Origin: Escherichia coli | Lineage (GTDB): Bacteria > Pseudomonadota > Gammaproteobacteria > Enterobacterales > Enterobacteriaceae | NCBI RefSeq assembly: GCF_003334385.1 | Contig: NZ_QOWN01000002.1 | Direction: 5' to 3' (one strand) | DNA: 64,000 nucleotides | Shown: positions 13,875-46,069 of the stretch, piece by piece | How positions within the stretch are numbered: the stretch's first letter is position 1 | Layout of the letters: every line of letters starts with the position of its first letter | Program-made: the position numbers and the translations under genes | The notes under the pieces: model-generated | The model's database searches: none | Told to the model about the DNA's origin: nothing | Seen by the model: the letters and a program-made list of their open reading frames with translations, nothing else

Positions 13875-13989
13875 ACTTAATAACTTCTTACAAAGTCTAT
13901 TATTAATACCGTAGATATTTATTCATCTTACCCTGTGCACCAAAAGCAAAAACTCACTGACGCGGGTTTGAAACTGATGGCAACCGCAA

Positions 13990-14100: not shown

Positions 14101-14117
14101 GCGCACTCAACAATCTG

Positions 14118-14487: not shown

Positions 14488-14864
<377 letters not shown>

Positions 14865-25752: not shown

Positions 25753-26620
25753 TCAAACCACCCTGCCGAACGTCAGTGAAAACGAAGAAACATTGCTGAC
25801 TGGCGTCAATGAAAACGTGTATGAAGATCAGAGCATTGGCGCGGAGCTGACGAAAAAAGATATCAACCGCGTCGCCTGGCGTTCCATGCTGTTACAAGCG
25901 TCTTTTAACTACGAACGTATGCAGGCTTCTGGCTGGTTGTACGGTCTGCTGCCTGCTCTGAAAAAGATCCACACTAATAAACGCGACCTGGCGCGCGCCA
26001 TGAAGGGGCATATAGGTTTCTTCAATACCCATCCGTTTCTGGTGACGTTTGTTATCGGCATTATCCTTGCGATGGAGCGTTCTAAGCAGGACGTTAACAG
26101 TATTCAGAGCACCAAAATTGCCGTCGGTGCGCCGCTTGGCGGGATTGGCGATGCAATGTTCTGGCTAACGCTACTGCCGATTTGTGGCGGGATTGGAGCC
26201 AGTCTGGCATTGCAAGGCTCCATTCTTGGCGCAGTCGTCTTTATTGTGCTGTTCAACGTGGTACACCTGGGGCTGCGTTTTGGTCTGGCGCATTATGCTT
26301 ACCGCATGGGCGTGGCGGCGATTCCACTGATTAAAGCGAATACCAAAAAAGTCGGCCATGCTGCGTCTATCGTTGGGATGACGGTAATCGGTGCGCTGGT
26401 GGCAACCTATGTTCGTTTAAGCACCACGCTGGAAATCACGGCGGGCGACGCAGTGGTTAAGTTACAGGCTGATGTTATCGACAAACTGATGCCGGCCTTC
26501 TTACCGTTGGTCTACACCCTGACCATGTTTTGGTTGGTACGCCGCGGCTGGAGTCCGCTGCGTCTGATTGCAGTTACCGTGGTTCTCGGCATCGTCGGTA
26601 AATTCTGCCATTTCCTTTAA
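25736..26620 (+). CDS. agaE: PTS EIID, N-acetylgalactosamine-specific (AgaE), ~292-294 aa
   Basis: Track ORF; mannose-family IID, paralogous to AgaD; overlaps the agaW 3' end. Confidence 0.88.
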   Translation: MKMASNQTTLPNVSENEETLLTGVNENVYEDQSIGAELTKKDINRVAWRSMLLQASFNYERMQASGWLYGLLPALKKIHTNKRDLARAMKGHIGFFNTHPFLVTFVIGIILAMERSKQDVNSIQSTKIAVGAPLGGIGDAMFWLTLLPICGGIGASLALQGSILGAVVFIVLFNVVHLGLRFGLAHYAYRMGVAAIPLIKANTKKVGHAASIVGMTVIGALVATYVRLSTTLEITAGDAVVKLQADVIDKLMPAFLPLVYTLTMFWLVRRGWSPLRLIAVTVVLGIVGKFCHFL

Positions 26621-26637
26621 ATACAATGAGGTATTAG

Positions 26638-27072
26638 ATGTTAAGTATTATTTTGACAGGGCATGGCGGGTTTGCCAGCGGCATGGAAAAAGCAATGAAG
26701 CAAATTCTCGGTGAGCAATCGCAGTTTATCGCCATCGATTTTCCGGAAACCTCAAGCACCGCGCTGCTTACATCGCAGCTTGAAGAGGCCATCGCCCAAC
26801 TGGATTGTGAAGACGGCATTGTTTTTCTGACGGATTTGCTGGGCGGCACGCCGTTTCGCGTAGCTTCAACGCTGGCGATGCAAAAACCGGGCTGTGAAGT
26901 GATCACCGGCACCAATTTGCAACTGCTACTGGAGATGGTGCTGGAGCGCGAAGGGTTAAGCGGTGAAGAATTCCGTGTACAGGCGCTGGAGTGTGGACAC
27001 CGAGGGCTGACCAGTCTGGTGGACGAGTTAGGCCGCTGCCATGAAGAATGTCCGGTCGAGGAAGGAATATGA
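26638..27072 (+). CDS. agaF: PTS EIIA, mannose family (AgaF), 144 aa
   Basis: Track ORF; EIIA-Man fold N-terminus MLSIILTGHGGFASG. Confidence 0.88.
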   Translation: MLSIILTGHGGFASGMEKAMKQILGEQSQFIAIDFPETSSTALLTSQLEEAIAQLDCEDGIVFLTDLLGGTPFRVASTLAMQKPGCEVITGTNLQLLLEMVLEREGLSGEEFRVQALECGHRGLTSLVDELGRCHEECPVEEGI

Positions 27073-28202
27073 CACACGTTCTGCGCGCCAGAAGGCTGCT
27101 GACTGAAGAGGGATGGCTCGATGACCATCAGTTGCGTATTGCTGACGGTGTCATCGCAGCAATCGAACCGATTCCAGCGGGCGTGACTGAACGCGATGCG
27201 GAACTGCTCTGCCCTGCTTACATCGACACCCATGTACACGGTGGTGCGGGCGTTGATGTAATGGATGACGCGCCGGATGTACTCGACAAGCTGGCAATGC
27301 ACAAGGCACGCGAAGGTGTCGGCAGTTGGTTACCGACCACCGTAACCACGCCGCTTAATACCATTCATGCGGCGCTGAAACGTATTGCTCAACGTTGCCA
27401 ACGCGGCGGACCTGGTGCGCAAGTGCTGGGGAGTTATCTCGAAGGACCGTACTTCACGCCGCAGAATAAAGGCGCGCATCCGCCGGAGTTGTTTCGCGAG
27501 CTTGAAATTGCCGAGCTGGATCAGTTGATTGCCGTTTCTCAGCACACCTTACGTGTGGTAGCGCTGGCACCGGAAAAAGAAGGGGCATTGCAGGCCATCC
27601 GCCATCTTAAACAGCAAAACGTAAGGGTGATGCTGGGGCATAGCGCGGCGACCTGGCAACAAACCCGCGCCGCATTTGATGCTGGTGCCGACGGCCTGGT
27701 GCATTGCTATAACGGGATGACAGGTTTACATCACCGCGAACCGGGAATGGTTGGCGCGGGATTAACGGACAAGCGCGCCTGGCTGGAACTGATAGCCGAT
27801 GGTCATCATGTGCATCCGGCGGCAATGTCGCTGTGTTGTTGCTGTGCGAAAGAGAGAATCGTACTGATCACCGACGCGATGCAGGCAGCTGGGATGCCGG
27901 ATGGTCGCTATACGTTATGTGGTGAAGAAGTGCAGATGCACGGTGGCGTTGTCCGTACCGCGTCTGGTGGGCTGGCGGGCAGTACGCTGTCTGTTGATGC
28001 GGCAGTGCGCAATATGGTCGAGTTGACGGGCGTAACGCCTGCGGAAGCCATCCATATGGCGTCGCTGCATCCGGCGCGAATGCTGGGTGTTGATGGTGTT
28101 CTGGGATCGCTTAAACCGGGCAAACGCGCCAGCGTCGTTGCGCTGGATAGCGGGCTACATGTGCAACAAATCTGGATTCAGGGTCAATTAGCTTCGTTTT
28201 GA
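27069..28202 (+). CDS. agaA: N-acetylgalactosamine-6-phosphate deacetylase AgaA, full-length 377 aa
   Basis: Track ORF 27048..28202; start set at ATG after the RBS gaagga (MTHVLRARRLL); NagA-like amidohydrolase. Overlaps the agaF stop. Confidence 0.88.
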   Translation: MTHVLRARRLLTEEGWLDDHQLRIADGVIAAIEPIPAGVTERDAELLCPAYIDTHVHGGAGVDVMDDAPDVLDKLAMHKAREGVGSWLPTTVTTPLNTIHAALKRIAQRCQRGGPGAQVLGSYLEGPYFTPQNKGAHPPELFRELEIAELDQLIAVSQHTLRVVALAPEKEGALQAIRHLKQQNVRVMLGHSAATWQQTRAAFDAGADGLVHCYNGMTGLHHREPGMVGAGLTDKRAWLELIADGHHVHPAAMSLCCCCAKERIVLITDAMQAAGMPDGRYTLCGEEVQMHGGVVRTASGGLAGSTLSVDAAVRNMVELTGVTPAEAIHMASLHPARMLGVDGVLGSLKPGKRASVVALDSGLHVQQIWIQGQLASF

Positions 28203-28204
28203 TA

Positions 28205-28375
28205 GTTTGCTCCTTTATTGGGCCTTCACTTCCCCCGTAAGGCCTTTCTTTTTCTTTCGTTTTGATCTGTGCAGCGGTGTCGGATGCGACGCTAACGCGT
28301 CTTATCCGACCTACAGTTGGTGACCGCAAGGCCGGATAAAGCGTTTGCGCCGCATCCAGCAATCCCTTTTGCTTC
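28205..28375. repeat. REP/BIME cluster between agaA and agaS
   Basis: REP-like palindromic units gtcggatgcgacgctaacgcgtcttatccgacctac and ggccggataaagcgtttgcgccgcatccagc. Coordinates approximate. Confidence 0.7.
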
Positions 28376-28552
28376 CTTTATCTTTTCTTTCAACGATCAC
28401 AAATTTCGTTTTATTTCTTTTTTCTCCATTGAACTTTCAGTTTCTTTTCTATAGATTTTAATCAACGAAAGACATCACCAAGTGAAATGAAACGAAAGGC
28501 AAGTGAAAGCGACAACGCCCGACGTCAAGTTCATCAGACTAAGGATTGAGTT
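28376..28552 (+). promoter_or_regulatory. agaS promoter region with AgaR operator-like repeats
   Basis: Dense CTTTC / GAAAG repeats (tctttcaacgatcacaaatttcgttttatttc...gaaatgaaacgaaaggcaagtgaaagcg) of the same family as the agaR/kbaZ region. Confidence 0.55.
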
Positions 28553-29707
28553 ATGCCAGAAAATTACACCCCTGCTGCCGCCGCAACCGGTACATGGACT
28601 GAAGAAGAGATCCGCCATCAGCCTCGCGCATGGATCCGTTCACTCACCAACATCGACGCGCTACGTTCCGCGCTCAATAACTTCCTTGAACCGTTACTGC
28701 GCAAAGAGAATCTGCGGATCATCCTGACCGGAGCCGGAACGTCGGCATTTATCGGTGACATCATCGCGCCGTGGCTCGCCAGCCATACCGGTAAAAACTT
28801 CAGCGCCGTACCGACCACCGATCTGGTCACCAATCCGATGGACTACCTGAACCCAGCTCATCCGCTGCTGTTGATCTCCTTCGGTCGATCCGGCAACAGC
28901 CCGGAAAGCGTCGCAGCCGTGGAACTGGCAAATCAATTTGTACCGGAATGCTATCACCTGCCGATCACCTGCAACGAAGCGGGCGCTCTTTACCAAAACG
29001 CGATCAACAGCGATAACGCGTTTGCCCTGCTGATGCCCGCAGAAACGCACGATCGCGGCTTTGCGATGACCAGCAGCATTACCACCATGATGGCCAGCTG
29101 CCTCGCGGTTTTCGCACCTGAGACGATCAACAGCCAAACCTTCCGCGACGTGGCGGATCGTTGCCAGGCGATCCTGACCTCACTGGGCGATTTCAGCGAA
29201 GGTGTGTTTGGTTACGCACCGTGGAAACGGATCGTTTATCTCGGTAGCGGTGGCTTACAGGGCGCAGCACGCGAGTCGGCGCTGAAAGTGCTGGAACTGA
29301 CGGCGGGTAAACTGGCGGCCTTTTATGATTCTCCAACCGGATTCCGTCATGGACCAAAATCGCTGGTCGATGACGAAACGCTGGTGGTGGTATTTGTCTC
29401 CAGCCACCCTTACACCCGTCAGTATGATCTTGATCTGCTGGCTGAACTTCGCCGTGACAACCAGGCAATGCGTGTAATCGCCATCGCCGCGGAAAGCAGC
29501 GACATCGTCGCTGCCGGTCCACATATCATCCTGCCACCGTCACGTCACTTTATCGACGTTGAGCAGGCATTTTGCTTCCTGATGTACGCCCAGACGTTTG
29601 CACTGATGCAGTCGCTGCACATGGGCAATACGCCGGATACCCCATCAGCCAGTGGCACCGTTAACCGCGTGGTGCAAGGCGTAATCATTCATCCGTGGCA
29701 GGCATAA
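28553..29707 (+). CDS. agaS: Galactosamine-6-phosphate deaminase/isomerase AgaS (SIS domains), 384 aa
   Basis: Track ORF; tandem SIS-domain protein at the conserved position. Confidence 0.92.
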   Translation: MPENYTPAAAATGTWTEEEIRHQPRAWIRSLTNIDALRSALNNFLEPLLRKENLRIILTGAGTSAFIGDIIAPWLASHTGKNFSAVPTTDLVTNPMDYLNPAHPLLLISFGRSGNSPESVAAVELANQFVPECYHLPITCNEAGALYQNAINSDNAFALLMPAETHDRGFAMTSSITTMMASCLAVFAPETINSQTFRDVADRCQAILTSLGDFSEGVFGYAPWKRIVYLGSGGLQGAARESALKVLELTAGKLAAFYDSPTGFRHGPKSLVDDETLVVVFVSSHPYTRQYDLDLLAELRRDNQAMRVIAIAAESSDIVAAGPHIILPPSRHFIDVEQAFCFLMYAQTFALMQSLHMGNTPDTPSASGTVNRVVQGVIIHPWQA

Positions 29708-30580
<873 letters not shown>

Positions 30581-30746
30581 TCATTAGTTTTTTATGATTT
30601 ATCCCAATGTACTTCCCGATTAATATCGGGGAGTGCCTTAATGGAAAAGGAGATAACTAAACCTTAATAAATACATCACTACAATATCGCAACAATAATA
30701 TATTTAAAAAAATTATATTATTCAACTTTATGGTGAGGATTACACA

Positions 30747-31223
30747 ATAACCAGTCCAAATATTCTCTTAACCCGTATTGATAACCGTCTGGTTCACGGT
30801 CAGGTTGGCGTGACCTGGACATCCACCATCGGTGCAAATCTGCTGGTAGTCGTGGATGATGTTGTCGCTAACGATGATATTCAACAGAAATTAATGGGTA
30901 TTACCGCGGAAACCTACGGCTTTGGCATTCGTTTCTTTACTATCGAAAAAACCATTAACGTCATCGGCAAAGCTGCACCACATCAGAAGATCTTCCTGAT
31001 TTGCCGTACGCCACAAACGGTACGTAAATTGGTAGAAGTTGGTATTGACCTGAAAGATGTCAACGTCGGCAATATGCATTTCTCGGAAGGGAAAAAGCAA
31101 ATCAGCAGTAAAGTTTATGTCGATGACCAGGATCTCACGGACTTACGTTTTATTAAACAACGTGGCGTGAATGTTTTCATTCAGGACGTCCCTGGCGATC
31201 AAAAAGAACAAATCCCTGACTAA
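30747..31223 (+). CDS. agaB: PTS EIIB, galactosamine-specific (AgaB), 158 codons if initiated at the expected position
   Basis: Track ORF 30810..31223 starts at a GTG. The reading frame continues upstream and encodes the EIIB phospho-His segment TSPNILLTRIDNRLVHGQ. The codon at the expected start, 7 nt after the SD ggtgagga, reads ATA; there is no in-frame ATG/GTG/TTG between the upstream stop (~30705) and 30810. Confidence 0.7.
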   Translation: MTSPNILLTRIDNRLVHGQVGVTWTSTIGANLLVVVDDVVANDDIQQKLMGITAETYGFGIRFFTIEKTINVIGKAAPHQKIFLICRTPQTVRKLVEVGIDLKDVNVGNMHFSEGKKQISSKVYVDDQDLTDLRFIKQRGVNVFIQDVPGDQKEQIPD

Positions 31224-31261
31224 ATCTAAAATCGCCTTAATATTGGTTTGAGGTAATAAAA

Positions 31262-32065
31262 ATGCATGAAATAACCCTACTTCAGGGATTATCCCTGGCG
31301 GCGTTAGTTTTTGTTCTGGGGATTGATTTTTGGCTGGAAGCCTTATTTTTATTCCGCCCGATAATCGTTTGTACCCTAACTGGCGCTATTCTCGGTGATA
31401 TTCAGACTGGCTTAATTACCGGTGGTCTGACAGAGTTGGCTTTCGCCGGATTAACCCCTGCAGGTGGTGTTCAGCCGCCCAACCCGATTATGGCGGGTCT
31501 GATGACCACCGTCATTGCATGGTCTACGGGCGTTGATGCCAAAACAGCAATTGGTCTTGGCCTGCCGTTTAGTTTGTTAATGCAGTACGTCATTCTGTTC
31601 TTCTATTCCGCTTTCTCATTATTTATGACCAAAGCCGATAAATGCGCGAAAGAGGCGGATACGGCAGCGTTTTCCCGGCTTAACTGGACAACGATGCTCA
31701 TCGTCGCTTCAGCGTATGCGGTGATTGCTTTCCTCTGTACTTACCTGGCACAGGGGGCGATGCAGGCGCTGGTGAAAGCGATGCCCGCCTGGCTGACCCA
31801 CGGCTTTGAAGTGGCTGGCGGTATTCTGCCTGCCGTTGGTTTTGGCTTGCTGCTGCGCGTAATGTTCAAAGCGCAATATATCCCTTACCTGATCGCCGGT
31901 TTCCTGTTTGTTTGCTACATCCAGGTCAGCAACCTGTTGCCGGTTGCCGTACTGGGCGCAGGCTTTGCGGTGTATGAGTTTTTCAATGCGAAATCCCGGC
32001 AGCAAGCGCAACCGCAGCCCGTTGCCAGTAAAAATGAAGAAGAGGACTACAGCAATGGGATCTGA
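31262..32065 (+). CDS. agaC: PTS EIIC, galactosamine-specific (AgaC), 267 aa
   Basis: Track ORF; mannose-family IIC. Confidence 0.92.
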   Translation: MHEITLLQGLSLAALVFVLGIDFWLEALFLFRPIIVCTLTGAILGDIQTGLITGGLTELAFAGLTPAGGVQPPNPIMAGLMTTVIAWSTGVDAKTAIGLGLPFSLLMQYVILFFYSAFSLFMTKADKCAKEADTAAFSRLNWTTMLIVASAYAVIAFLCTYLAQGAMQALVKAMPAWLTHGFEVAGGILPAVGFGLLLRVMFKAQYIPYLIAGFLFVCYIQVSNLLPVAVLGAGFAVYEFFNAKSRQQAQPQPVASKNEEEDYSNGI

Positions 32066-32846
32066 AATCAGTAAAAAAGATATCACCCGTCTGGGCTTTC
32101 GTTCGTCGCTGCTGCAAGCGAGCTTTAACTACGAAAGGATGCAGGCGGGCGGTTTTACCTGGGCGATGTTGCCGATCCTGAAAAAGATTTATAAGGACGA
32201 CAAACCGGGCTTAAGCGCGGCGATGAAAGATAACCTCGAATTTATTAATACCCACCCGAATCTGGTCGGATTCCTGATGGGGTTATTAATTTCGATGGAA
32301 GAAAAAGGAGAAAACCGCGACACCATTAAAGGCCTCAAAGTGGCACTGTTTGGCCCAATCGCCGGGATTGGCGATGCGATTTTCTGGTTTACTTTGTTGC
32401 CGATTATGGCGGGAATTTGCTCATCATTTGCCAGCCAGGGAAACCTGCTGGGGCCGATTCTATTTTTCGCCGTTTACCTGCTTATCTTTTTCCTGCGCGT
32501 CGGCTGGACCCACGTCGGTTATTCAGTCGGCGTGAAGGCGATCGATAAAGTGCGAGAGAACTCGCAGATGATTGCCCGTTCGGCAACCATCCTCGGGATC
32601 ACGGTAATCGGCGGGCTGATCGCTTCGTATGTGCATATTAACGTGGTGACATCGTTTGCCATCGACAATACCCACAGCGTTGCGCTGCAGCAGGATTTCT
32701 TCGATAAAGTCTTCCCGAACATTTTACCGATGGCCTACACCCTGCTGATGTATTACTTCCTGCGGGTGAAAAAAGCGCATCCGGTGCTGTTAATCGGCGT
32801 GACTTTTGTGCTCTCTATTGTTTGTTCCGCATTCGGCATTTTGTAA
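32055..32846 (+). CDS. agaD: PTS EIID, galactosamine-specific (AgaD), 263 aa
   Basis: Track ORF 31908..32846 is over-extended into agaC; start set at ATG giving MGSEISKKDITRLGFRSSLLQASFNYERMQ; overlaps the agaC stop by 11 nt. Confidence 0.9.
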   Translation: MGSEISKKDITRLGFRSSLLQASFNYERMQAGGFTWAMLPILKKIYKDDKPGLSAAMKDNLEFINTHPNLVGFLMGLLISMEEKGENRDTIKGLKVALFGPIAGIGDAIFWFTLLPIMAGICSSFASQGNLLGPILFFAVYLLIFFLRVGWTHVGYSVGVKAIDKVRENSQMIARSATILGITVIGGLIASYVHINVVTSFAIDNTHSVALQQDFFDKVFPNILPMAYTLLMYYFLRVKKAHPVLLIGVTFVLSIVCSAFGIL

Positions 32847-33602
32847 ATGGAACGAGGCACTGCGTCTGGTGGTGCCTCTTTACTTAAGGAATTTCATCCT
32901 GTGCAAACCCTTCAGCAAGTTGAAAACTATACGGCGTTAAGTGAACGTGCCAGCGAATATTTATTGGCCGTGATCCGTAGCAAACCGAATGCCGTGATTT
33001 GCCTGGCGACCGGAGCCACGCCATTACTGACGTATCATTATCTGGTAGAAAAAATCCACCAGCAGCAGGTTGATGTCAGCCAGCTCACCTTCGTGAAGCT
33101 CGACGAATGGGTGGATCTGCCATTAACGATGCCAGGCACCTGCGAAACTTTCCTGCAACAGCATATCGTGCAGCCGCTGGGGCTACGTGAAGACCAGCTC
33201 ATCAGCTTTCGCTCCGAAGAGATAAATGAGACAGAGTGCGAACGGGTAACGAACCTGATTGCGCGCAAAGGCGGTCTGGATTTATGCGTTCTCGGATTGG
33301 GGAAAAACGGTCATCTTGGGCTGAACGAACCGGGAGAAAGCCTGCAACCGGCCTGCCATATCAGTCAACTTGATGCCAGAACACAGCAACATGAGATGTT
33401 AAAAACCGCGGGTCGCCCCGTGACTCGTGGGATCACCTTAGGCCTGAAGGATATTCTCAATGCCCGCGAAGTTTTGTTACTGGTGACTGGCGAAGGAAAG
33501 CAGGATGCGACAGATCGTTTTCTCACGGCTAAAGTCTCTACCGCTATCCCGGCTTCATTTTTATGGCTGCACAGTAACTTTATTTGTTTAATTAACACCT
33601 AA
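32847..33602 (+). CDS. agaI: Galactosamine-6-phosphate isomerase/deaminase AgaI (NagB-like), 251 aa
   Basis: Track ORF; GlcN6P deaminase family, last gene of the aga cluster. Confidence 0.9.
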   Translation: MERGTASGGASLLKEFHPVQTLQQVENYTALSERASEYLLAVIRSKPNAVICLATGATPLLTYHYLVEKIHQQQVDVSQLTFVKLDEWVDLPLTMPGTCETFLQQHIVQPLGLREDQLISFRSEEINETECERVTNLIARKGGLDLCVLGLGKNGHLGLNEPGESLQPACHISQLDARTQQHEMLKTAGRPVTRGITLGLKDILNAREVLLLVTGEGKQDATDRFLTAKVSTAIPASFLWLHSNFICLINT

Positions 33603-34002
33603 CCAGATGAAAAATTTGCTCAAAATGTTTAAATTAACTTATGTAACAGTCACGCATTATATTAAATAACATTTGACTGGGTTGAACATAACGCCGATAG
33701 CAAAAGGAGTTATGTTCAACAATTTAATTTTAGATATACATATAACTTGTTCTATTAATAAATCACCTCGTATTCTGACTCGCCCCCTGGCGCAGCAAAG
33801 TCAGGCATTTATACTCTTTTGAATACATAGAAAATTGATATCAATATAATGAAAATATCAAATATTTGCATATAAATATAATCTTAAAGTTCAGTCTATT
33901 TAATGTTCAATGAAATATTTCTGCCTGTATAATCTTTAAAGATGTTGAACATATATTCACATTAAATATGATTATGTACTTGTTACAAGGATAAGGTTAT
34001 AT

Positions 34003-34587
34003 ATGAATAAAGTTACAAAAACAGCTATTGCGGGCTTACTTGCGCTTTTCGCAGGTAATGCCGCTGCAACCGATGGTGAAATAGTTTTTGATGGCGAGAT
34101 TTTAAAATCCGCTTGTGAAATCAATGACTCTGATAAGAAAATTGAAGTTGCTCTTGGTCACTATAATGCCGAACAGTTTCGTAATATTGGCGAGCGTAGC
34201 CCAAAAATTCCATTCACTATTCCTTTAGTTAACTGCCCAATGACTGGGTGGGAGCACGATAACGGCAACGTTGAAGCGTCTTTCCGTCTATGGCTGGAAA
34301 CGCGAGATAATGGCACCGTCCCTAACTTCCCTAATCTGGCAAAAGTAGGCTCTTTTGCTGGCATAGCGGCAACAGGTGTGGGTATCCGTATTGACGATGC
34401 GGAAAGCGGAAACATTATGCCACTGAATGCTATGGGCAATGATAACACGGTTTATCAGATCCCGGCGGAATCCAATGGTATTGTCAATGTTGACCTCATC
34501 GCTTACTACGTATCAACCGTAGTTCCATCAGAAATCACCCCAGGGGAAGCAGACGCTATCGTTAACGTAACGCTGGATTACCGTTAA
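34003..34587 (+). CDS. yraH: Fimbrial major subunit-like protein YraH, 194 aa
   Basis: Track ORF; signal peptide MNKVTKTAIAGLLALFAGNAAA and fimbrial subunit C-terminus; first gene of the chaperone-usher operon. Confidence 0.88.
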   Translation: MNKVTKTAIAGLLALFAGNAAATDGEIVFDGEILKSACEINDSDKKIEVALGHYNAEQFRNIGERSPKIPFTIPLVNCPMTGWEHDNGNVEASFRLWLETRDNGTVPNFPNLAKVGSFAGIAATGVGIRIDDAESGNIMPLNAMGNDNTVYQIPAESNGIVNVDLIAYYVSTVVPSEITPGEADAIVNVTLDYR

Positions 34588-34593
34588 TACGTT

Positions 34594-34628
34594 AGGGCGT
34601 TATCTGACCTGTCAGATAACGCCCTTTT
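34594..34628 (+). terminator. Hairpin terminator/attenuator after yraH
   Basis: gggcgttatctgac-ctg-tcagataacgccc followed by tttt, immediately after the yraH stop. Coordinates approximate. Confidence 0.6.
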
Positions 34629-34666
34629 CCTTCCTCTTTCTCGTTGTATCAGGTTGAAAAATAACT

Positions 34667-35362
34667 ATGTCAAAACGAACATTCGCGGTGATATTAACCT
34701 TGTTGTGTAGCTTCTGTATTGGCCAGGCGCTTGCAGGAGGAATCGTTTTACAGCGAACGCGAGTGATCTATGATGCCAGCCGCAAAGAGGCTGCGTTACC
34801 TGTCGCAAACAAAGGCGCAGAAACGCCTTATTTACTGCAATCATGGGTAGATAATATAGATGGTAAAAGCCGTGCCCCATTTATTATAACCCCACCGCTA
34901 TTTCGTCTTGAGGCTGGCGATGACTCATCACTGCGAATTATTAAAACAGCTGATAACCTGCCTGAAAATAAAGAGTCGCTGTTCTACATTAATGTTCGTG
35001 CCATTCCAGCAAAGAAAAAATCAGATGATGTTAATGCTAACGAGTTGACGCTGGTATTTAAAACACGGATCAAAATGTTTTATCGCCCCGCACACCTGAA
35101 GGGACGGGTAAACGATGCGTGGAAATCACTGGAATTTAAACGTAGTGACCATTCACTCAATATATATAACCCAACTGAATATTACGTCGTATTTGCCGGA
35201 CTGGCAGTCGATAAAACCGATCTCACAAGCAAAATTGAATATATCGCGCCCGGAGAACATAAACAGTTACCACTTCCTGCATCTGGCGGAAAGAACGTGA
35301 AATGGGCTGCGATCAATGATTATGGCGGCAGTTCCGGGACAGAAACTCGTCCACTGCAATAA
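34667..35362 (+). CDS. yraI: Periplasmic fimbrial chaperone YraI (PapD-like), 231 aa
   Basis: Track ORF; signal peptide and PapD-family chaperone sequence. Confidence 0.88.
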
Positions 35363-35390
35363 AAAATATAAAAACACAGGTCATCAGGGA

Positions 35391-37907
35391 ATGCCACAAC
35401 GACACCACCAGGGACATAAACGCACACCGAAACAGTTGGCGCTCATCATCAAACGTTGTTTGCCGATGGTGCTCACTGGCAGCGGCATGCTTTGCACTAC
35501 CGCTAACGCCGAAGAGTATTATTTCGACCCCATTATGCTGGAAACCACAAAAAGTGGTATGCAAACAACCGATCTGTCGCGTTTTTCAAAAAAATATGCA
35601 CAACTACCAGGAACTTATCAGGTTGATATCTGGCTGAATAAAAAGAAGGTTTCACAGAAAAAAATTACATTTACCGCCAATGCAGAGCAACTTCTGCAGC
35701 CACAGTTTACGGTAGAACAACTACGTGAGCTGGGGATTAAGGTGGATGAAATCCCGGCGCTGGCTGAAAAAGATGACGATAGCGTGATCAACTCGCTTGA
35801 ACAAATCATTCCCGGTACAGCTGCTGAATTTGATTTCAATCATCAGCAACTTAATTTGAGCATTCCCCAAATTGCACTGTACCGTGATGCAAGAGGTTAC
35901 GTCTCCCCTTCTCGTTGGGACGATGGTATACCAACGCTGTTTACCAACTACTCGTTTACAGGTTCTGATAACCGTTACCGCCAGGGCAATCGTAGCCAAC
36001 GACAGTACCTGAATATGCAAAATGGTGCTAATTTTGGCCCCTGGCGATTACGCAACTATTCCACATGGACACGCAACGATCAGACATCAAGCTGGAATAC
36101 CATCAGTAGTTATTTACAACGTGATATCAAGGCGTTGAAGTCTCAGTTGCTTCTGGGAGAAAGCGCCACCAGCGGCAGTATTTTTTCCAGCTACACCTTT
36201 ACTGGCGTGCAACTCGCTTCCGACGATAATATGTTGCCAAACAGCCAGCGCGGATTTGCCCCAACGGTACGCGGTATCGCAAACAGTAGTGCAATCGTGA
36301 CTATCAGGCAAAATGGTTATGTGATCTATCAAAGCAACGTGTCAGCGGGTGCCTTTGAAATTAACGATCTCTACCCCTCTTCCAACAGCGGCGATTTAGA
36401 AGTCACGATTGAAGAAAGTGACGGTACACAACGTCGCTTTATCCAGCCTTATTCTTCATTACCCATGATGCAGCGACCTGGGCATCTAAAGTATAGCGCG
36501 ACCGCTGGACGCTATCGCGCTGATGCAAACAGTGATAGCAAGGAACCCGAATTTGCTGAAGCCACGGCAATATATGGTTTGAATAATACTTTTACGCTGT
36601 ATGGCGGCCTGCTCGGTTCTGAAGATTATTATGCGCTGGGGATCGGTATCGGCGGCACACTTGGCGCACTGGGCGCGTTGTCGATGGATATCAACAGAGC
36701 TGACACCCAATTCGATAACCAGCACTCTTTTCATGGCTATCAATGGCGTACGCAGTACATCAAAGATATCCCGGAAACCAACACCAATATCGCTGTCAGC
36801 TACTATCGCTATACCAACGATGGCTATTTTAGTTTTAATGAAGCCAATACCCGCAATTGGGACTATAACAGTCGCCAAAAAAGTGAAATTCAATTCAACA
36901 TCAGCCAGACAATATTTGATGGGGTAAGTCTGTATGCCTCCGGTTCGCAGCAAGACTATTGGGGCAATAACGATAAAAACAGGAATATCTCTGTTGGGGT
37001 TTCCGGCCAGCAATGGGGAGTTGGTTACAGCCTGAATTATCAATACAGCCGCTACACTGATCAAAATAATGACCGCGCACTCTCTTTGAATCTCAGTATT
37101 CCGTTAGAACGCTGGTTACCGCGTAGCCGGGTTTCCTATCAGATGACCAGCCAGAAAGATCGCCCAACCCAACATGAAATGCGTCTTGATGGCTCACTGC
37201 TGGATGATGGTCGCCTGAGCTATAGCCTGGAACAAAGTCTGGATGACGATAACAACCATAACAGTAGCCTGAACGCCAGTTACCGTTCACCTTATGGCAC
37301 CTTCAGTGCCGGATACAGCTACGGTAATGACAGCAGCCAATACAATTACGGCGTTACCGGCGGCGTGGTTATCCATCCTCATGGCGTGACGCTCTCGCAA
37401 TATCTGGGCAACGCTTTTGCGCTTATCGATGCTAACGGAGCATCTGGCGTGAGGATACAAAACTATCCGGGGATTGCTACCGATCCTTTTGGCTATGCAG
37501 TGGTTCCTTATCTCACAACTTATCAGGAAAACCGTCTCTCGGTAGATACTACGCAGCTGCCCGATAACGTCGATCTTGAACAAACAACACAGTTTGTGGT
37601 GCCCAACAGAGGTGCAATGGTAGCGGCGCGTTTCAACGCCAATATCGGTTATCGCGTACTTGTTACAGTCAGCGATCGCAACGGTAAACCGTTGCCCTTT
37701 GGCGCTCTTGCCAGCAACGATGATACGGGGCAACAAAGTATCGTCGATGAGGGCGGCATACTATATCTCTCTGGGATATCGAGTAAATCACAAAGCTGGA
37801 CTGTACGCTGGGGAAATCAGGCAGATCAACAATGTCAGTTTGCTTTCAGTACACCGGATTCAGAACCTACAACCTCTGTATTACAAGGCACAGCGCAGTG
37901 CCATTAA
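35391..37907 (+). CDS. yraJ: Outer-membrane fimbrial usher YraJ, 838 aa
   Basis: Track ORF 35316..37907; start set at internal ATG (MPQRHHQGHKRTP...); usher family. Confidence 0.88.
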   Translation: MPQRHHQGHKRTPKQLALIIKRCLPMVLTGSGMLCTTANAEEYYFDPIMLETTKSGMQTTDLSRFSKKYAQLPGTYQVDIWLNKKKVSQKKITFTANAEQLLQPQFTVEQLRELGIKVDEIPALAEKDDDSVINSLEQIIPGTAAEFDFNHQQLNLSIPQIALYRDARGYVSPSRWDDGIPTLFTNYSFTGSDNRYRQGNRSQRQYLNMQNGANFGPWRLRNYSTWTRNDQTSSWNTISSYLQRDIKALKSQLLLGESATSGSIFSSYTFTGVQLASDDNMLPNSQRGFAPTVRGIANSSAIVTIRQNGYVIYQSNVSAGAFEINDLYPSSNSGDLEVTIEESDGTQRRFIQPYSSLPMMQRPGHLKYSATAGRYRADANSDSKEPEFAEATAIYGLNNTFTLYGGLLGSEDYYALGIGIGGTLGALGALSMDINRADTQFDNQHSFHGYQWRTQYIKDIPETNTNIAVSYYRYTNDGYFSFNEANTRNWDYNSRQKSEIQFNISQTIFDGVSLYASGSQQDYWGNNDKNRNISVGVSGQQWGVGYSLNYQYSRYTDQNNDRALSLNLSIPLERWLPRSRVSYQMTSQKDRPTQHEMRLDGSLLDDGRLSYSLEQSLDDDNNHNSSLNASYRSPYGTFSAGYSYGNDSSQYNYGVTGGVVIHPHGVTLSQYLGNAFALIDANGASGVRIQNYPGIATDPFGYAVVPYLTTYQENRLSVDTTQLPDNVDLEQTTQFVVPNRGAMVAARFNANIGYRVLVTVSDRNGKPLPFGALASNDDTGQQSIVDEGGILYLSGISSKSQSWTVRWGNQADQQCQFAFSTPDSEPTTSVLQGTAQCH

Positions 37908-37917
37908 GGATAAAAAA

Positions 37918-39009
37918 ATGAAAAGAGCGCCTCTTATAACAGGTCTTTTGTTGATATCCACATCCTGCGCTTATGCCTCCTCAGGAGGGTGTGGAGCCGA
38001 CAGCACTAGCGGTGCGACAAATTACAGCAGTGTGGTTGATGATGTTACGGTGAACCAGACAGATAACGTGACAGGACGGGAGTTTACCTCTGCAACGCTA
38101 AGTAGCACTAACTGGCAATACGCCTGTTCCTGCTCTGCGGGTAAGGCAGTTAAACTTGTCTATATGGTCAGCCCCGTACTTACCACCACTGGACATCAGA
38201 CAGGATATTACAAACTCAATGACAGCCTGGATATTAAAACCACATTACAGGCAAACGACATTCCAGGACTCACAACCGACCAGGTTGTCTCTGTTAACAC
38301 CCGATTCACACAGATAAAAAACAACACGGTATATTCTGCTGCAACCCAAACGGGTGTTTGCCAGGGTGATACGTCTCGTTATGGACCCGTTAATATTGGT
38401 GCGAACACCACCTTTACCCTGTATGTCACCAAGCCATTTCTCGGCTCGATGACCATTCCGAAAACGGATATTGCCGTCATTAAAGGCGCGTGGGTCGATG
38501 GAATGGGAAGCCCGTCTACAGGTGACTTCCATGATTTAGTCAAGTTATCGATTCAGGGAAATCTCACCGCCCCACAGTCGTGCAAAATTAATCAGGGCGA
38601 TGTTATTAAGGTTAATTTTGGATTCATCAATGGTCAGAAGTTTACCACCCGCAATGCCATGCCAGACGGTTTTACTCCAGTAGACTTTGATATCACTTAT
38701 GACTGTGGTGATACTTCAAAGATTAAAAACTCGTTGCAAATGCGCATCGACGGTACAACTGGGGTAGTAGACCAGTACAACCTGGTCGCCAGGCGAAGAA
38801 GTTCAGACAATGTGCCCGATGTCGGTATTCGTATTGAAAATCTCGGCGGCGGAGTTGCAAATATTCCTTTTCAGAACGGTATCCTTCCCGTTGATCCTTC
38901 CGGGCATGGCACCGTCAATATGCGCGCCTGGCCAGTTAATCTGGTCGGTGGTGAGCTGGAAACAGGAAAATTTCAGGGCACAGCCACCATTACCGTCATC
39001 GTGCGGTAA
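37918..39009 (+). CDS. yraK: Fimbrial adhesin-like protein YraK, 363 aa
   Basis: Track ORF 37660..39009 over-extended; start set at ATG giving MKRAPLITGLLLISTSCAYA signal peptide. Confidence 0.85.
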   Translation: MKRAPLITGLLLISTSCAYASSGGCGADSTSGATNYSSVVDDVTVNQTDNVTGREFTSATLSSTNWQYACSCSAGKAVKLVYMVSPVLTTTGHQTGYYKLNDSLDIKTTLQANDIPGLTTDQVVSVNTRFTQIKNNTVYSAATQTGVCQGDTSRYGPVNIGANTTFTLYVTKPFLGSMTIPKTDIAVIKGAWVDGMGSPSTGDFHDLVKLSIQGNLTAPQSCKINQGDVIKVNFGFINGQKFTTRNAMPDGFTPVDFDITYDCGDTSKIKNSLQMRIDGTTGVVDQYNLVARRRSSDNVPDVGIRIENLGGGVANIPFQNGILPVDPSGHGTVNMRAWPVNLVGGELETGKFQGTATITVIVR

Positions 39010-39017
39010 AAGAAGAC

Positions 39018-39041
39018 GTTGCGTTTTGATTAACGCAACGC
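39018..39041. terminator. Bidirectional hairpin terminator between convergent yraK and rsmI
   Basis: cgttgcgtt-ttgatt-aacgcaacg with T-runs on both sides. Coordinates approximate. Confidence 0.55.
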
Positions 39042-39051
39042 TTCGGCACTG

Positions 39052-39912
39052 TTACCCCTGCTGCTCCAGCGCATACTTATACAGCGCATTTTTCTTCACG
39101 CCGTGAATTTCTGCGGCCAGCGCCGCCGCTTTTTTCAGCGGCAGTTCTGCCTGTAGCAGCGCCAGCGTGCGCAGGGCATCGGCGGGTAAGTCTTCTTCCT
39201 GTGCTTTATGACCTTCGACAATCAGCACCATTTCGCCTTTGCGACGGTTTTCATCTTCCTTTACCCACGCCAGCAGCTCGCCAACGGGCGCGCCGTGAAT
39301 GGTTTCCCAGGTTTTGGTCAGCTCACGCGCCAGAACCACGTAGCGGGATTCGCCTAATACCGCAACGATATCTTCCAGGCTATCTAACAGACGGTGGGTA
39401 GATTCATAAAAAATCAGCGTGCGCGGCTCCGCTTCAATGGCTTTTAGCGCATCACGGCGGCCTTTTGATTTGGCAGGTAAAAAGCCTTCGTAACAGAAAC
39501 GGTCAGAGGGTAAACCCGCTGCGCTTAACGCAGTGATAGCAGCACACGGCCCGGGTAGCGGCACCACGCGGATCCCCGCTTCACGGCAGGTACGCACCAG
39601 ATGGTAGCCAGGATCGTTAATTAGCGGCGTTCCGGCATCGGAAACCAGCGCAATGTTTTGCCCCTCTTGCAGCTTCGCCAGCAGCGTTTCAGCTTTTTGT
39701 TGTTCGTTATGGTCGTGCAGCGCAAACAACCGGGCATTAATCCCAAAATGTTGCAGCAATAAACCGGTGTGACGAGTATCCTCGGCGGCAATCAGATCAA
39801 CGGCCTGTAATACCTCTAACGCACGCTGGGTGATATCCGCCAGATTGCCGATTGGCGTCGGTACAATGTAAAGCTGGCCCTGAGAATTATCCGCCGATTG
39901 GTGTTGTTTCAT
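39052..39912 (-). CDS. rsmI: 16S rRNA (cytidine1402-2'-O)-methyltransferase RsmI, 286 aa
   Basis: Track ORF; tetrapyrrole-methylase fold ([15 protein letters not shown]). Confidence 0.92.
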
Positions 39913-39976
39913 TGTGTCGTCCGTATTGCCGATTTAATATTGAGCATTGCGTAAAAAAAATATCACTGGATACATT

Positions 39977-42013
39977 ATGGTACCCTCAACATTTTCTCGT
40001 TTGAAAGCCGCGCGTTGTCTGCCTGTTGTTCTGGCAGCCCTGATTTTCGCCGGTTGTGGCACCCATACTCCCGATCAGTCCACTGCTTATATGCAGGGCA
40101 CGGCGCAGGCTGATTCTGCCTTTTATCTTCAGCAGATGCAGCAAAGCTCTGATGATACCAGGATCAACTGGCAATTACTCGCCATTCGTGCACTGGTGAA
40201 AGAAGGTAAAACCGGGCAGGCGGTTGAGTTGTTTAACCAACTACCGCAAGAACTGAACGATGCTCAGCGTCGCGAGAAAACACTGCTGGCGGTAGAGATT
40301 AAACTGGCGCAGAAAGATTTTGCTGGCGCGCAAAACTTGCTGGCGAAAATCACACCTGCCGATTTAGAACAAAACCAGCAAGCGCGTTACTGGCAGGCAA
40401 AAATCGATGCCAGCCAGGGGCGTCCTTCCATTGATTTACTGCGCGCGTTAATTGCTCAGGAACCGCTGCTTGGCGCGAAAGAAAAACAGCAGAATATTGA
40501 TGCCACCTGGCAGGCGCTCTCCTCCATGACTCAGGAACAGGCGAATACGCTGGTGATCAACGCCGACGAAAATATTCTGCAAGGCTGGCTGGATCTGCAG
40601 CGCGTCTGGTTTGATAACCGTAACGATCCCGACATGATGAAAGCCGGGATCGCCGACTGGCAGAAACGTTATCCGAACAATCCGGGCGCGAAAATGCTGC
40701 CAACGCAGTTGGTTAACGTAAAAGCGTTTAAACCAGCCTCGACCAACAAAATCGCCCTGCTGTTGCCACTGAATGGCCAGGCAGCGGTATTTGGTCGCAC
40801 TATTCAGCAAGGCTTTGAAGCGGCGAAAAATATCGGCACTCAGCCAGTGGCAGCTCAGGTAGCTGCCGCACCTGCCGCAGACGTAGCTGAACAACCTCAG
40901 CCGCAAACCGTGGATGGCGTTGCCAGCCCGGCACAAGCCTCGGTTAGCGATCTGACCGGTGAACAGCCTGCAGCCCAGCCGGTGCCTGTAAGCGCCCCGG
41001 CGACAAGCACCGCAGCGGTAAGCGCACCCGCAAATCCATCCGCAGAGCTGAAAATCTACGATACCTCATCACAACCACTTAGCCAGATCTTAAGCCAGGT
41101 TCAGCAGGATGGCGCGAGTATTGTGGTCGGTCCGTTGCTGAAAAATAACGTTGAAGAGTTGCTGAAGAGCAACACTCCGCTGAACGTACTGGCACTGAAC
41201 CAGCCGGAGAATATCGAAAATCGCGTCAATATTTGTTACTTCGCGCTTTCACCGGAAGACGAAGCGCGCGATGCAGCGCGTCATATTCGTGACCAGGGTA
41301 AACAAGCGCCGCTGGTGCTGATCCCACGCAGTTCATTGGGCGATCGCGTAGCCAATGCGTTTGCGCAAGAGTGGCAGAAACTGGGCGGCGGCACCGTTCT
41401 GCAACAAAAATTTGGTTCCACCAGCGAATTACGCGCGGGTGTTAACGGCGGTTCTGGTATTGCTTTAACGGGTAGCCCGATTACTCTCAGAGCGACAACC
41501 GACTCCGGCATGACGACCAACAATCCAACGCTGCAAACCACGCCAACCGATGACCAGTTCACCAATAATGGCGGTCGTGTCGATGCGGTGTACATTGTGG
41601 CAACGCCGGGTGAAATCGCTTTTATCAAACCGATGATCGCCATGCGTAACGGTAGCCAGAGCGGTGCAACGCTGTACGCCAGCTCCCGCAGTGCGCAAGG
41701 GACCGCTGGCCCGGATTTCCGACTGGAGATGGAAGGCTTGCAGTACAGCGAAATCCCGATGCTGGCAGGCGGTAATCTACCGTTAATGCAGCAGGCACTC
41801 AGCGCGGTGAATAACGATTATTCACTGGCTCGCATGTATGCGATGGGCGTCGATGCCTGGTCGCTGGCAAATCATTTCTCACAAATGCGCCAGGTTCAGG
41901 GTTTTGAAATCAACGGTAATACCGGAAGCCTGACGGCTAACCCGGATTGCGTGATTAACAGGAACTTATCATGGCTACAGTACCAACAAGGTCAGGTAGT
42001 CCCCGTCAGTTAA
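39977..42013 (+). CDS. lpoA: Outer-membrane lipoprotein LpoA (activator of PBP1A), 678 aa
   Basis: Track ORF 39947..42013; start set at ATG giving [27 protein letters not shown] (lipobox); TPR N-domain and Pro/Ala/Gln-rich linker. Confidence 0.9.
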
Positions 42014-42366
42014 CCACCAAACAGACCGGCGATGCGTGGGAAGCACAAGCGCGTCGCTGGCTGGAAGGCAAAGGACTGCGGTTTATCGCCGCTAACGTGA
42101 ACGAGCGTGGCGGCGAGATCGATCTGATAATGCGTGAAGGCCGGACCACCATTTTTGTCGAGGTACGCTATCGCCGCTCTGCGCTTTATGGCGGCGCGGC
42201 AGCCAGTGTGACCCGCAGCAAACAACACAAATTATTACAGACTGCCCGCTTGTGGCTCGCGCGTCATAATGGGAGTTTTGATACTGTGGATTGCCGGTTC
42301 GATGTGGTAGCCTTCACCGGGAATGAGGTTGAGTGGATTAAGGATGCCTTTAATGACCACTCATAA
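41971..42366 (+). CDS. yraN: UPF0102 protein YraN (predicted endonuclease fold), 131 aa
   Basis: Track ORF overlapping the lpoA 3' end. Confidence 0.88.
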
Positions 42367-42385
42367 TTAAGGTTTAAGGATTAGC

Positions 42386-42976
42386 GTGCAAGAAAGAATT
42401 AAAGCTTGCTTCACTGAAAGCATTCAAACTCAAATTGCGGCGGCAGAGGCGCTTCCGGATGCCATCTCCCGTGCAGCCATGACGCTGGTTCAGTCTCTGC
42501 TCAATGGCAACAAAATCCTCTGTTGTGGTAATGGAACTTCCGCTGCCAATGCACAGCATTTTGCTGCCAGCATGATCAACCGTTTCGAAACGGAGCGGCC
42601 CAGCTTACCTGCCATTGCACTAAATACTGATAATGTTGTCTTAACGGCGATTGCCAACGATCGCTTACATGATGAAGTGTATGCAAAACAGGTGCGGGCG
42701 CTGGGTCATGCGGGAGATGTATTGTTAGCCATTTCCACCCGTGGCAACAGCCGCGATATTGTTAAAGCAGTTGAAGCCGCCGTTACGCGTGATATGACCA
42801 TTGTGGCATTGACCGGCTATGACGGCGGCGAACTTGCAGGTTTGTTAGGGCCACAGGATGTGGAGATCCGCATTCCTTCGCATCGTAGTGCTCGCATTCA
42901 GGAAATGCATATGCTGACGGTAAATTGCCTGTGCGATCTGATCGATAACACGCTTTTCCCTCACCAGGATGATTAA
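42386..42976 (+). CDS. diaA: DnaA initiator-associating protein DiaA (SIS domain), 196 aa
   Basis: Track ORF with GTG start; SIS phosphoheptose-isomerase-like sequence. Confidence 0.92.
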
Positions 42977-42985
42977 GGAGAATAC

Positions 42986-43561
42986 ATGAAGGCATTATCG
43001 CCAATCGCAGTCCTTATTTCCGCGCTGCTGTTGCAAGGTTGTGTTGCCGCTGCCGTAGTGGGTACCGCTGCTGTGGGTACCAAAGCCGCAACTGACCCAC
43101 GCAGTGTCGGCACCCAGGTGGACGATGGTACCCTGGAAGTGCGCGTGAACAGCGCATTGTCGAAAGACGAACAGATTAAGAAAGAAGCGCGCATTAATGT
43201 AACGGCCTATCAGGGCAAAGTGCTGCTGGTTGGGCAGTCACCAAATGCTGAACTTTCGGCTCGCGCCAAACAGATTGCTATGGGCGTAGACGGTGCCAAC
43301 GAAGTGTATAACGAGATTCGTCAGGGCCAGCCGATTGGTCTGGGCGAAGCATCTAACGATACGTGGATCACCACCAAAGTGCGTTCGCAGCTCTTAACCA
43401 GCGACCTGGTGAAATCGTCCAACGTGAAAGTGACCACCGAAAACGGTGAAGTGTTCCTGATGGGGCTGGTGACTGAACGTGAAGCGAAAGCGGCGGCAGA
43501 TATTGCCAGCCGGGTGAGCGGCGTGAAGCGGGTAACTACGGCGTTTACGTTTATTAAATAG
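42986..43561 (+). CDS. dolP: Outer-membrane lipoprotein DolP (YraP), dual BON domains, 191 aa
   Basis: Track ORF; lipobox LLLQGC and two BON domains. Confidence 0.92.
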   Translation: MKALSPIAVLISALLLQGCVAAAVVGTAAVGTKAATDPRSVGTQVDDGTLEVRVNSALSKDEQIKKEARINVTAYQGKVLLVGQSPNAELSARAKQIAMGVDGANEVYNEIRQGQPIGLGEASNDTWITTKVRSQLLTSDLVKSSNVKVTTENGEVFLMGLVTEREAKAAADIASRVSGVKRVTTAFTFIK

Positions 43562-43562
43562 C

Positions 43563-43665
43563 AGCCCCTTGTAATGCCTGATGCGACGCTTGCCGCGTCT
43601 TATCAGGCCTACAACGATACAAACCGTAGGTCAGATAAGGCGTTTACGCCGCATCCGACATGTTT
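43563..43665. repeat. REP/BIME element between convergent dolP and yraQ
   Basis: gcctgatgcgacgcttgccgcgtcttatcaggcctac and ggtcagataaggcgtttacgccgcatccgacatg palindromic units. Coordinates approximate. Confidence 0.75.
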
Positions 43666-43674
43666 TCCCTCAAA

Positions 43675-44715
43675 TCAGAACAACAGCGCCAGCCCGCCGA
43701 CAATCACACCAGACACTGCCACCATCGCCCCTGTCAGCCATAAGGCTTTCGCCGGGAACGCTTTGCGCAGCATAATCAGTGACGGCAAACTCACTGCCGG
43801 GAGCGTCATCAACAATGCCAGCGCCGGAGCGGTTCCCATACCTGCCAGCATCATCGTTTGTACAATCGGAATTTCTGCTGCCGTGGGAATGACAAACAAG
43901 CATCCTGCTACCGCCATCGCCACCACCCACATCAGGCTGTTATCGACAGCACCATCGGCATGGGGGAATAACCAGACGCGAGCGGCACCCAACACCAGTA
44001 CTGCAAGGATGTAAACCGGGATCGTACTCCAGAAAAGCGTCCATAGCGCCCTGCCCCAGCGGCTAAAAAACCCGCCCTGTGCTTCCGGTATGTCAATTTC
44101 GACCGGTGCCTGCGTTTGCGGTGTTTCACGCACCCATTTTTGCACCAGCGTCGCAATCAGCAACACCATCACCAGCCCGGCCACCAGACGAATCACCGCA
44201 AAACCCCAGCCGAGGACAAAGCCCATAAACACCAGCGTCGCCGGGTTTAACACCGGATTGCCCATCCAGAATGCCAGCGCACCGCCCATCGACACCTGTT
44301 GGCGACGCATTCCCGCCGCGACCGGAGCCGCACAGCAGGTACACATCATGCCCGGCAACGAAAACAGCGTTCCCAGCAGCGTGCCGCGAAAGCGCGATTG
44401 CCCAAGCGTACGCAACAACCAGTCACGCGGGATCAGCACCTGAATCAACGAACCGAGGATCACCCCCAGCACCGCCGCTTTCCATACCGCGAGGAAATAG
44501 ATCATCGCGTAATCCAACGCCGCCTGCCATGGGTTAGCATCCGCCTGCGCAAGGATAGATTTACCGATACTGTGGGTTTCGGCAGCAGTAAACGCTTTGC
44601 CGTAGTAAGGTTCCCATTTCACATACCAGAGACCGGCAATGACAACGAGAAAGAAAAGCGCGGGTTTCCACCACTGAATGGGCGTTGCCGCCTGAGATGA
44701 AGACTGACCAGTCAT
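43675..44715 (-). CDS. yraQ: Predicted permease YraQ, 346 aa
   Basis: Track ORF; polytopic membrane protein. Confidence 0.88.
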   Translation of the reverse strand: MTGQSSSQAATPIQWWKPALFFLVVIAGLWYVKWEPYYGKAFTAAETHSIGKSILAQADANPWQAALDYAMIYFLAVWKAAVLGVILGSLIQVLIPRDWLLRTLGQSRFRGTLLGTLFSLPGMMCTCCAAPVAAGMRRQQVSMGGALAFWMGNPVLNPATLVFMGFVLGWGFAVIRLVAGLVMVLLIATLVQKWVRETPQTQAPVEIDIPEAQGGFFSRWGRALWTLFWSTIPVYILAVLVLGAARVWLFPHADGAVDNSLMWVVAMAVAGCLFVIPTAAEIPIVQTMMLAGMGTAPALALLMTLPAVSLPSLIMLRKAFPAKALWLTGAMVAVSGVIVGGLALLF

Positions 44716-44787
44716 AGCATTCCCCAGGAATAAGTTATGATAATTGAGCGCGTGAATATTACGCTCACTATCAATTCTTGGGAATAA

Positions 44788-46048
<1,261 letters not shown>

Positions 46049-46069
<21 letters not shown>

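Follow-up and report, generated by a model that had tools for sequence, protein, structure and literature searches.

REP-type palindromic units at five gene junctions of a 64-kb stretch of Escherichia coli DNA, and the insertion of IS621 at their tails

The palindromic units (PU) known as REPs are sorted into the types y, z1 and z2, and their combinations into BIME-1 and BIME-2, according to the definitions collected by Ton-Hoang et al. (PMC3333891). The same source counts 584 REPs in K-12, reports that the long (L) linker of BIME-1 is bound by IHF, and describes changes in the copy number of BIME-2; a second count gives 355 annotated REP elements for K-12 (PMC4550694). The y REPs of BIME-2 have been connected with gyrase (PMC6379681), and a genome-wide study found BIME-1 to be present or absent between strains and BIMEs to be enriched in strain-specific loops (PMC1187871). 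One REP array, REP325, gives rise to naRNA4, which consists of a y-linker-z2 unit (PMC4550694). REPs are also established targets of insertion sequences (PMC1525189), and in the case of IS621 the natural target was defined as the 11-nt sequence ATCAGGCCTAC (PMC11208160). As described below, the elements studied here reproduce these systems closely, and all our observations are textbook REP/BIME and IS621 biology, already known.

The DNA analysed (the window) is a stretch of 64,000 nucleotides from E. coli contig NZ_QOWN01000002.1 (assembly GCF_003334385.1). Its alignment with K-12 MG1655 showed 99.96% identity over positions 1-25348 and 99.97% over 27644-46577, and the aga cluster is intact in it, unlike in K-12. 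The gene map was taken from the annotations of K-12 and of strain SCU-104, which is 100% identical to the window over the dolP/yraQ stretch. Ten flanking genes were re-checked: rnpB, which was placed via Rfam, and the nine protein-coding genes that flank the five REP junctions, all of them intact open reading frames at their mapped coordinates. Three of the junctions are convergent (yhaC/rnpB, dolP/yraQ and yhbW/mtr) and two are co-directional (agaA/agaS and infB/rbfA); across the five junctions, none of the REP elements of the window sits in a divergent promoter region.

Motif counts give evidence that a repeat family is represented in this DNA. The REP tail motif CTTATCMGGCCTAC, allowing up to two mismatches, occurred 8 times, against 0.38 occurrences expected from shuffles, and none of 100 shuffles reached 8. 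The head motif is less specific (15 occurrences versus 7.9 expected) and was only marginally enriched. To avoid circularity, detection and typing relied on three reference REPs (y, z1 and z2) taken from Durrant et al. 2024 (PMC11208160). Window-wide, these references gave significant matches (E at or below 3.5e-4) at nine places only, and a hidden Markov model built from the nine units recovered all of them at E at or below 3e-5, the next match having an E of about 1. Since the references match those nine places and nowhere else, the list of five sites is complete for the window. The RefSeq MG1655 record examined lists no REP features. From the published K-12 counts and the length of the MG1655 chromosome (4,641,652 bp), about 8 units at about 5 loci would be expected per 64 kb; nine units at five loci were observed, so that the density of REPs is typical, with no enrichment.

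An initial annotation of this DNA had placed REP-like units in five ranges and had suggested a consensus scan and y/z typing. REP units were indeed found inside every range, all nine match the y, z1 or z2 references, and the units passed both this comparison and the hairpin test. Some of the proposed limits needed to be redrawn. In the range 28205-28375, REPs begin at 28277 and the portion 28205-28276 is not REP; the range 51040-51149 holds one intact REP, the remainder being only two half-REP remnants (51051-51080 and 51115-51141); and the "rnpB repeats" listed as REPs turned out to be a separate 113-bp tandem array at 14118-14510. The units and their linkers are the following:

13992-14022, plus strand: REP A1, type z1; identity to the z1 reference 30/30 (29/30 over the 29-nt unit); DNA hairpin of -8.4 kcal/mol, z -4.4
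14023-14057, unstranded: long (L) linker of BIME-1, 35 bp; IHF-like motif ATTCAATATATTG at 14033-14045 on the minus strand
14058-14093, minus strand: REP A2, type y, tail-to-tail with A1; 33/35 to the y reference; hairpin z -2.1
28277-28314, plus strand: REP B1, y/z2 hybrid; 30/35 to y and 30/37 to z2; hairpin of -11.5 kcal/mol, z -4.8
28325-28362, minus strand: REP B2, type y, degenerate foot (no CTAC); 31/35 to y, E 3e-7; weak fold, z -0.7
43574-43612, plus strand: REP C1, type z2; 35/37 to z2; hairpin z -4.9; starts 14 nt past the dolP stop
43613-43625, unstranded: short linker of BIME-2, 13 bp, from the sequence
43626-43661, minus strand: REP C2, type y; 32/35 to y; hairpin z -2.7; starts 15 nt past the yraQ stop
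51051-51080, plus strand: half-REP remnant (GCCTTATCCG...CCTAC); partial matches only
51081-51112, minus strand: REP D1, type z1, with tail ATCAGGTCTAT; 26/30 to z1; hairpin z -3.3
51115-51141, minus strand: half-REP remnant, inverted with respect to the left one; partial matches only
59829-59866, minus strand: REP E1, type z2, foot CAAC; 33/37 to z2; hairpin z -5.7
59870-59905, plus strand: REP E2, type y, degenerate foot, head-to-head with E1; 30/35 to y; z -0.85

Each unit is an imperfect palindrome of 30-39 nt whose identity to the type references ranges from 26/30 to 35/37, and a CTAC/GTAG foot is found in most copies. The canonical fold (stem, internal loop, stem) was obtained for 9/9 units, and for seven of the nine no more than 4 of 200 shuffles did as well or better, with B2 and E2 folding no better than shuffles. 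Across the nine copies, 97% of the cells of the outer stem, which has eight pairs, are paired, compared with 28-47% in slid registers, and this stem carries compensatory changes at two positions (G-C/T-A and C-G/T-A). The exact CTAC foot is present in A1, A2, B1, C1 and C2, it differs by one change in D1 (CTAT) and E1, and it is absent from B2 and E2; these four copies may be decaying and non-functional. The hybrid character of B1 derives from a y-like G-C stem position combined with a z2-like centre. All nine units are extragenic, lying 3' of stop codons and between intact open reading frames. They thus share with the REP/PU family (y, z1 and z2) their length, the imperfect palindrome with internal mismatch, the foot, the extragenic 3' position and sequence identity, and no essential difference was found, the departures being the y/z2 hybrid and the four degraded feet. 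We put at about 95% the probability that the five sites belong to the E. coli REP (palindromic unit) family as ordinary copies arranged in BIMEs.

At yhaC/rnpB, a z1 unit, an L linker and an inverted y unit occur as a single copy, the arrangement that defines BIME-1, an element also described as RIP or RIB. The nature of the linker was examined in a sample of 5,426 complete E. coli genomes, in which a 49-bp linker query including the flanking tetranucleotides found, in a distant-mode search, a median of 10 and up to 21 places per genome; megablast with a 63-bp linker query was too strict to reveal this repetition (median of 1 place). Because it is repeated in this way, the yhaC/rnpB linker is the L motif of the family. 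The 63-bp megablast query detected the uninterrupted BIME-1 core at this junction in some 3,800 genomes out of 5,426, which fits the published present-or-absent behaviour of BIME-1 (PMC1187871). The IHF-like match at 14033-14045 has one mismatch to the consensus WATCAANNNNTTR. A scan of the window with the IHF consensus showed no enrichment (52 matches versus 57 expected), so that the motif alone is not significant and the IHF site is a candidate only because the linker is homologous to the L motif of BIME-1. In summary, the yhaC/rnpB element has in common with BIME-1 the z1 unit, the 35-bp linker, the inverted y, the single copy, a linker repeated about ten times per genome and presence or absence between strains; it differs in the one mismatch of its IHF motif, and IHF binding at this copy would be expected from the literature.

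The remaining z1 unit, D1, stands alone at yhbW/mtr between the two inverted half-REP remnants, and the REPs at agaA/agaS form an atypical tail-to-tail pair in the intergenic region. A terminator scan at agaA/agaS found no site. Just after agaA and within the range first proposed for this junction, positions 28221-28248 form a hairpin (GGGCCTT...AAGGCCT) with a T-rich run behind it; this hairpin is not REP-like and was not called by the simple terminator scan.

The initial annotation had also regarded the REPs as insertion hotspots, and this proposal was borne out by IS621. The window itself contains no copy of this element. The tails of A1 and C1 are exact copies of the 11-mer ATCAGGCCTAC, with the CT core at 14019-14020 (A1) and 43609-43610 (C1), and in D1 the core reads AG on the plus strand, at 51083-51084. 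The broken matches observed at yhaC/rnpB and yhbW/mtr proved to be IS621 insertions, located exactly at A1 in two stretches (L004 and L005) and at D1 in a third (L008). The A1 junction reads ...TTATCAGGC-CT-[IS621]-CT-ACGCC..., and the D1 junction, on the REP strand, ...TTATCAGGT-CT-[IS621]-CT-ACG.... As the junctions carry CT on both sides, the insertion point of IS621 is the CT core of the REP tail, and the element has the same orientation as the REP. Chimeric queries joining flank and insertion sequence detected IS621 at A1 in 251 and at D1 in 401 of the 5,426 genomes. Since C1 has the exact 11-mer, a synthetic C1-IS621 junction was built as a prediction, and it was found in 7 of the 5,426 genomes, four of which are derivatives of one isolate. 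Three of the five sites are therefore used by IS621, in each case at the CT core of a z-type REP tail. The supplements of Durrant et al. 2024 (PMC11208160) make no mention of these junction genes. Compared with the natural REP target of IS621, the exact 11-mer in A1 and C1 and the CT-flanked insertions oriented with the REP are shared, and the difference lies in D1, the most occupied site, whose target is imperfect: in the occupied stretch L008 (2724-2730 and 4003-4010) it reads ATCAGGTCTAC, whose seventh position is a T, and in the window (51081-51091) it reads ATCAGGTCTAT.

Three IS621 landing pads thus lie within 40 kb, and their occupancy across the 5,426 genomes differs more than 50-fold without following the match to the target. 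Inherited copies form part of these counts, which do not give the number of insertion events. The uneven occupancy of the three nearby targets is probably explained by clonal inheritance. It is distinctly improbable that the gap reflects an insertion preference, in which local context or tolerance of the position-7 mismatch would shape bridge-RNA targeting in nature.

A broader role had been attributed to the REPs, namely that of recombination break-points at the limits of variable or accessory DNA, the instances named being the yhaBC islet and the segment deleted from the aga cluster of K-12. REP junctions are in fact more variable than average: at least 80% of the yhaC/rnpB junction is kept in only 3,425 of the 5,426 genomes, and the yhbW/mtr junction in 4,837 of them. 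In strain SCU-482, moreover, the position of the yhbW/mtr REP cluster is occupied by two genes, one of the L,D-transpeptidase family and the other a hypothetical gene of 531 bp (L006 9521-10928, corresponding to window 51033-51149), and the published enrichment of BIMEs in strain-specific loops (PMC1187871) points in the same direction. However, most of the variability at yhbW/mtr is IS621 insertion (401 of about 589 genomes), and two REP junctions are stable, with at least 80% of a 1.2-kb query kept in 5,306 of 5,426 genomes at agaA/agaS and in 5,423 of 5,426 at infB/rbfA. The two specific examples did not hold either. The K-12 MG1655 deletion covers window positions 25349-27643 (the 3' part of agaW, agaE, agaF and the 5' part of agaA), and its ends fall inside agaW and agaA at a 6-bp GCGACC microhomology (9/10 bases alike); no REP was found at either end, the right one being about 635 bp from B1, the nearest REP. 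This microhomology speaks for a simple deletion in which no repeat element took part. In E2348/69, the losses in yhaB and yhaC are two deletions internal to the genes. A separate block of about 0.5 kb (approximately window 13953-14464), with the BIME-1 and 113-bp repeats, is also absent from this strain; as the BIME-1 is missing within the block, it is part of the variable DNA and not its edge. We consider it unlikely that the REPs delimit variable segments as break-points. The comparison of junctions across strains for REP-bounded indels accordingly gave a divided answer: insertions of IS621 within REPs and BIME polymorphism were found, and the yhaBC and aga examples were not sustained. The same division applies to the initial interpretation as a whole, in which the REP/BIME identity, the location at 3' junctions, the insertion hotspots and the BIME polymorphism stood, and the yhaBC islet and K-12 aga boundaries fell.

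BIME polymorphism is best seen at dolP/yraQ, which contains one BIME-2 unit (z2, 13-bp linker, y), the arrangement defining this class. The RNA 3' ends of dolP and of yraQ each fold into two REP hairpins (z -4.1 and -4.4). In strain YJ1 the 91-bp z2-linker-y unit is doubled, giving two units (+91 bp). A scan based on the DolP C-terminus, with one genome per species, returned 45 stretches, of which the 37 enterobacterial ones were analysed. E. albertii carries four tandem z2-y units downstream of dolP (eight REPs with a period of about 91 bp; L014 748-1120), two such units were found in E. whittamii, E. coli SCPM and Escherichia sp. MOD1-EC7003, and some Citrobacter have one or two REPs at this position. 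In Enterobacter, Kosakonia and Lelliottia no REP was found downstream of dolP, where the spacers measure only 34-45 nt. Since it is present across Escherichia with one to four units, the dolP BIME is old in this genus, with a changing copy number. The features shared with BIME-2 are the z2-y unit, the short linker and the variable number of units at the locus (one, two, four), a behaviour described for the class (PMC3333891); the window differs in having a single unit, and a role of gyrase at dolP/yraQ would rest on the literature only.

A further allele was encountered at this junction. In E7-1N7 and SCU-482 the BIME is replaced by a different, 121-bp spacer (L010 563-683 and L006 approximately 2065-2185, orthologous to window 43562-43674), and this replacement is present in 429 of the 5,426 E. 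coli genomes. The core of the spacer, CCCTCTCCCCAAAGGGGAGAGGG, is another dispersed G+C-rich palindromic repeat, with a median of 6 places per genome and no copy within the window; we take it to resemble boxC.

The infB/rbfA pair deserves separate consideration because of its match to the Rfam model of naRNA4 (RF02564), which covers positions 59832-59902 on the minus, transcribed strand and reaches 68.1 bits where the gathering score is 59.5. This score, the conservation of the pair in all but three of the 5,426 genomes, and the fact that naRNA4 itself is a y-linker-z2 unit (PMC4550694) would agree with a gene dedicated to a naRNA4-type small RNA that binds HU and condenses the nucleoid, in place of a generic BIME unit. 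Against this, RF02564 models one y-l-z2 BIME-2 unit, so that a good score is possible for a y/z2 pair placed head-to-head; the infB/rbfA linker is 6 nt shorter than that of the model; and the nusA-infB-rbfA transcript includes the pair, with a terminator hairpin immediately after it. In the RNA, the infB-rbfA spacer is predicted to fold into the y and z2 hairpins and then into a further, strong hairpin that resembles a terminator and has a U-run (z -6.6). The locus therefore shares with naRNA4 a y and a z2 hairpin with a linker between them and a score above the gathering threshold, and differs in being a single unit at another locus, with a shorter linker and within an operon mRNA. A dedicated naRNA4-type gene seems to us highly improbable, and to us the Rfam match denotes a "BIME-2-like unit" and does not speak for a gene of a nucleoid RNA. 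The junction is interrupted in strain 22AH104, where an IS4-family transposase gene lies between rbfA and infB (L007 1784-2971; about window 59786), near the terminator hairpin and the REP pair; this strain is one of only three genomes without the intact infB/rbfA junction.

A reading of the hairpins as intrinsic terminators specific to their genes, or as palindromes due to chance, with no repeat family behind them, would suit their position at gene 3' ends and their G+C-rich stems, but this has hardly any chance of being correct, given that no REP is followed by a T-run, that no terminator-like site was found at agaA/agaS, that identity to published REP types is clear (26/30 to 35/37), and that the family recurs at many places per genome (median of 5 for the dolP/yraQ query and of at least 36 for the yhaC/rnpB query, the 113-bp array included). 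Plain terminators were rejected on these grounds. A REPtron, in which REPs flank tnpA-REP and a Y1 transposase gene is therefore adjacent, was also discarded: no transposase-named product is annotated in window 23000-64000 or in the co-linear K-12 stretch for 1-23000, which indicates dispersed REP copies and not a REPtron.

Taking the REP/BIME reading as the working model, the expected activities of these elements can be outlined from the literature. The family would have been spread and resized by the TnpA-REP tyrosine transposase, encoded elsewhere in the genome. In RNA, REP hairpins may protect upstream mRNA from 3'-to-5' exonucleases, and stabilisation of transcripts by the REPs of the window is plausible, being consistent with their position and predicted hairpins only. 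The distance from the stop codon to the start of the REP hairpin is 14 nt for dolP, 15 nt for yraQ and about 12 nt for infB, and it is longer for mtr (about 41 nt), agaA (76 nt) and yhaC (119 nt). REPs less than 16 nt from a stop codon belong to the class reported to lower translation, as cited in PMC12306157, so a hairpin within 15 nt of the stop could reduce the translation of dolP, yraQ and infB. At the DNA level, the BIME-1 linker might bind IHF, the y units of BIME-2 might bind gyrase or be cut by it, and the bridge RNA of IS621 would recognise the REP tail, with recombination at the CT core.

Beyond correct annotation, the significance of these results is small, as the roles of REPs as insertion sequence targets and as sources of intergenic polymorphism have already been published. 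Of use are the precise coordinates and types of the nine units, the correction that neither the K-12 aga deletion nor the decay of yhaBC is bounded by REPs, and the population counts of IS621 use at three REPs, this element being of practical interest as a bridge recombinase.

Several minor observations concern the surrounding DNA. The 113-bp array comprises 3.5 copies of its unit downstream of rnpB, each with a terminator-like hairpin AAACCCGCCGAAGCGGGTTTTT, and is not REP; it is absent from E2348/69, and elsewhere its matched spans vary by strain, some by about one unit (1,188 or 1,230 bp for 1,301 and 1,117 query bases). Rfam matches above the gathering score, all expected for the region, were obtained for SraG (57804-57975, plus strand), the S15 leader (58205-58319, minus strand) and RNase P RNA (14488-14864, minus strand). 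Lastly, a perfect 9-bp hairpin, GCCGGATGA...TCATCCGGC, is found beside mtr in SCU-482.
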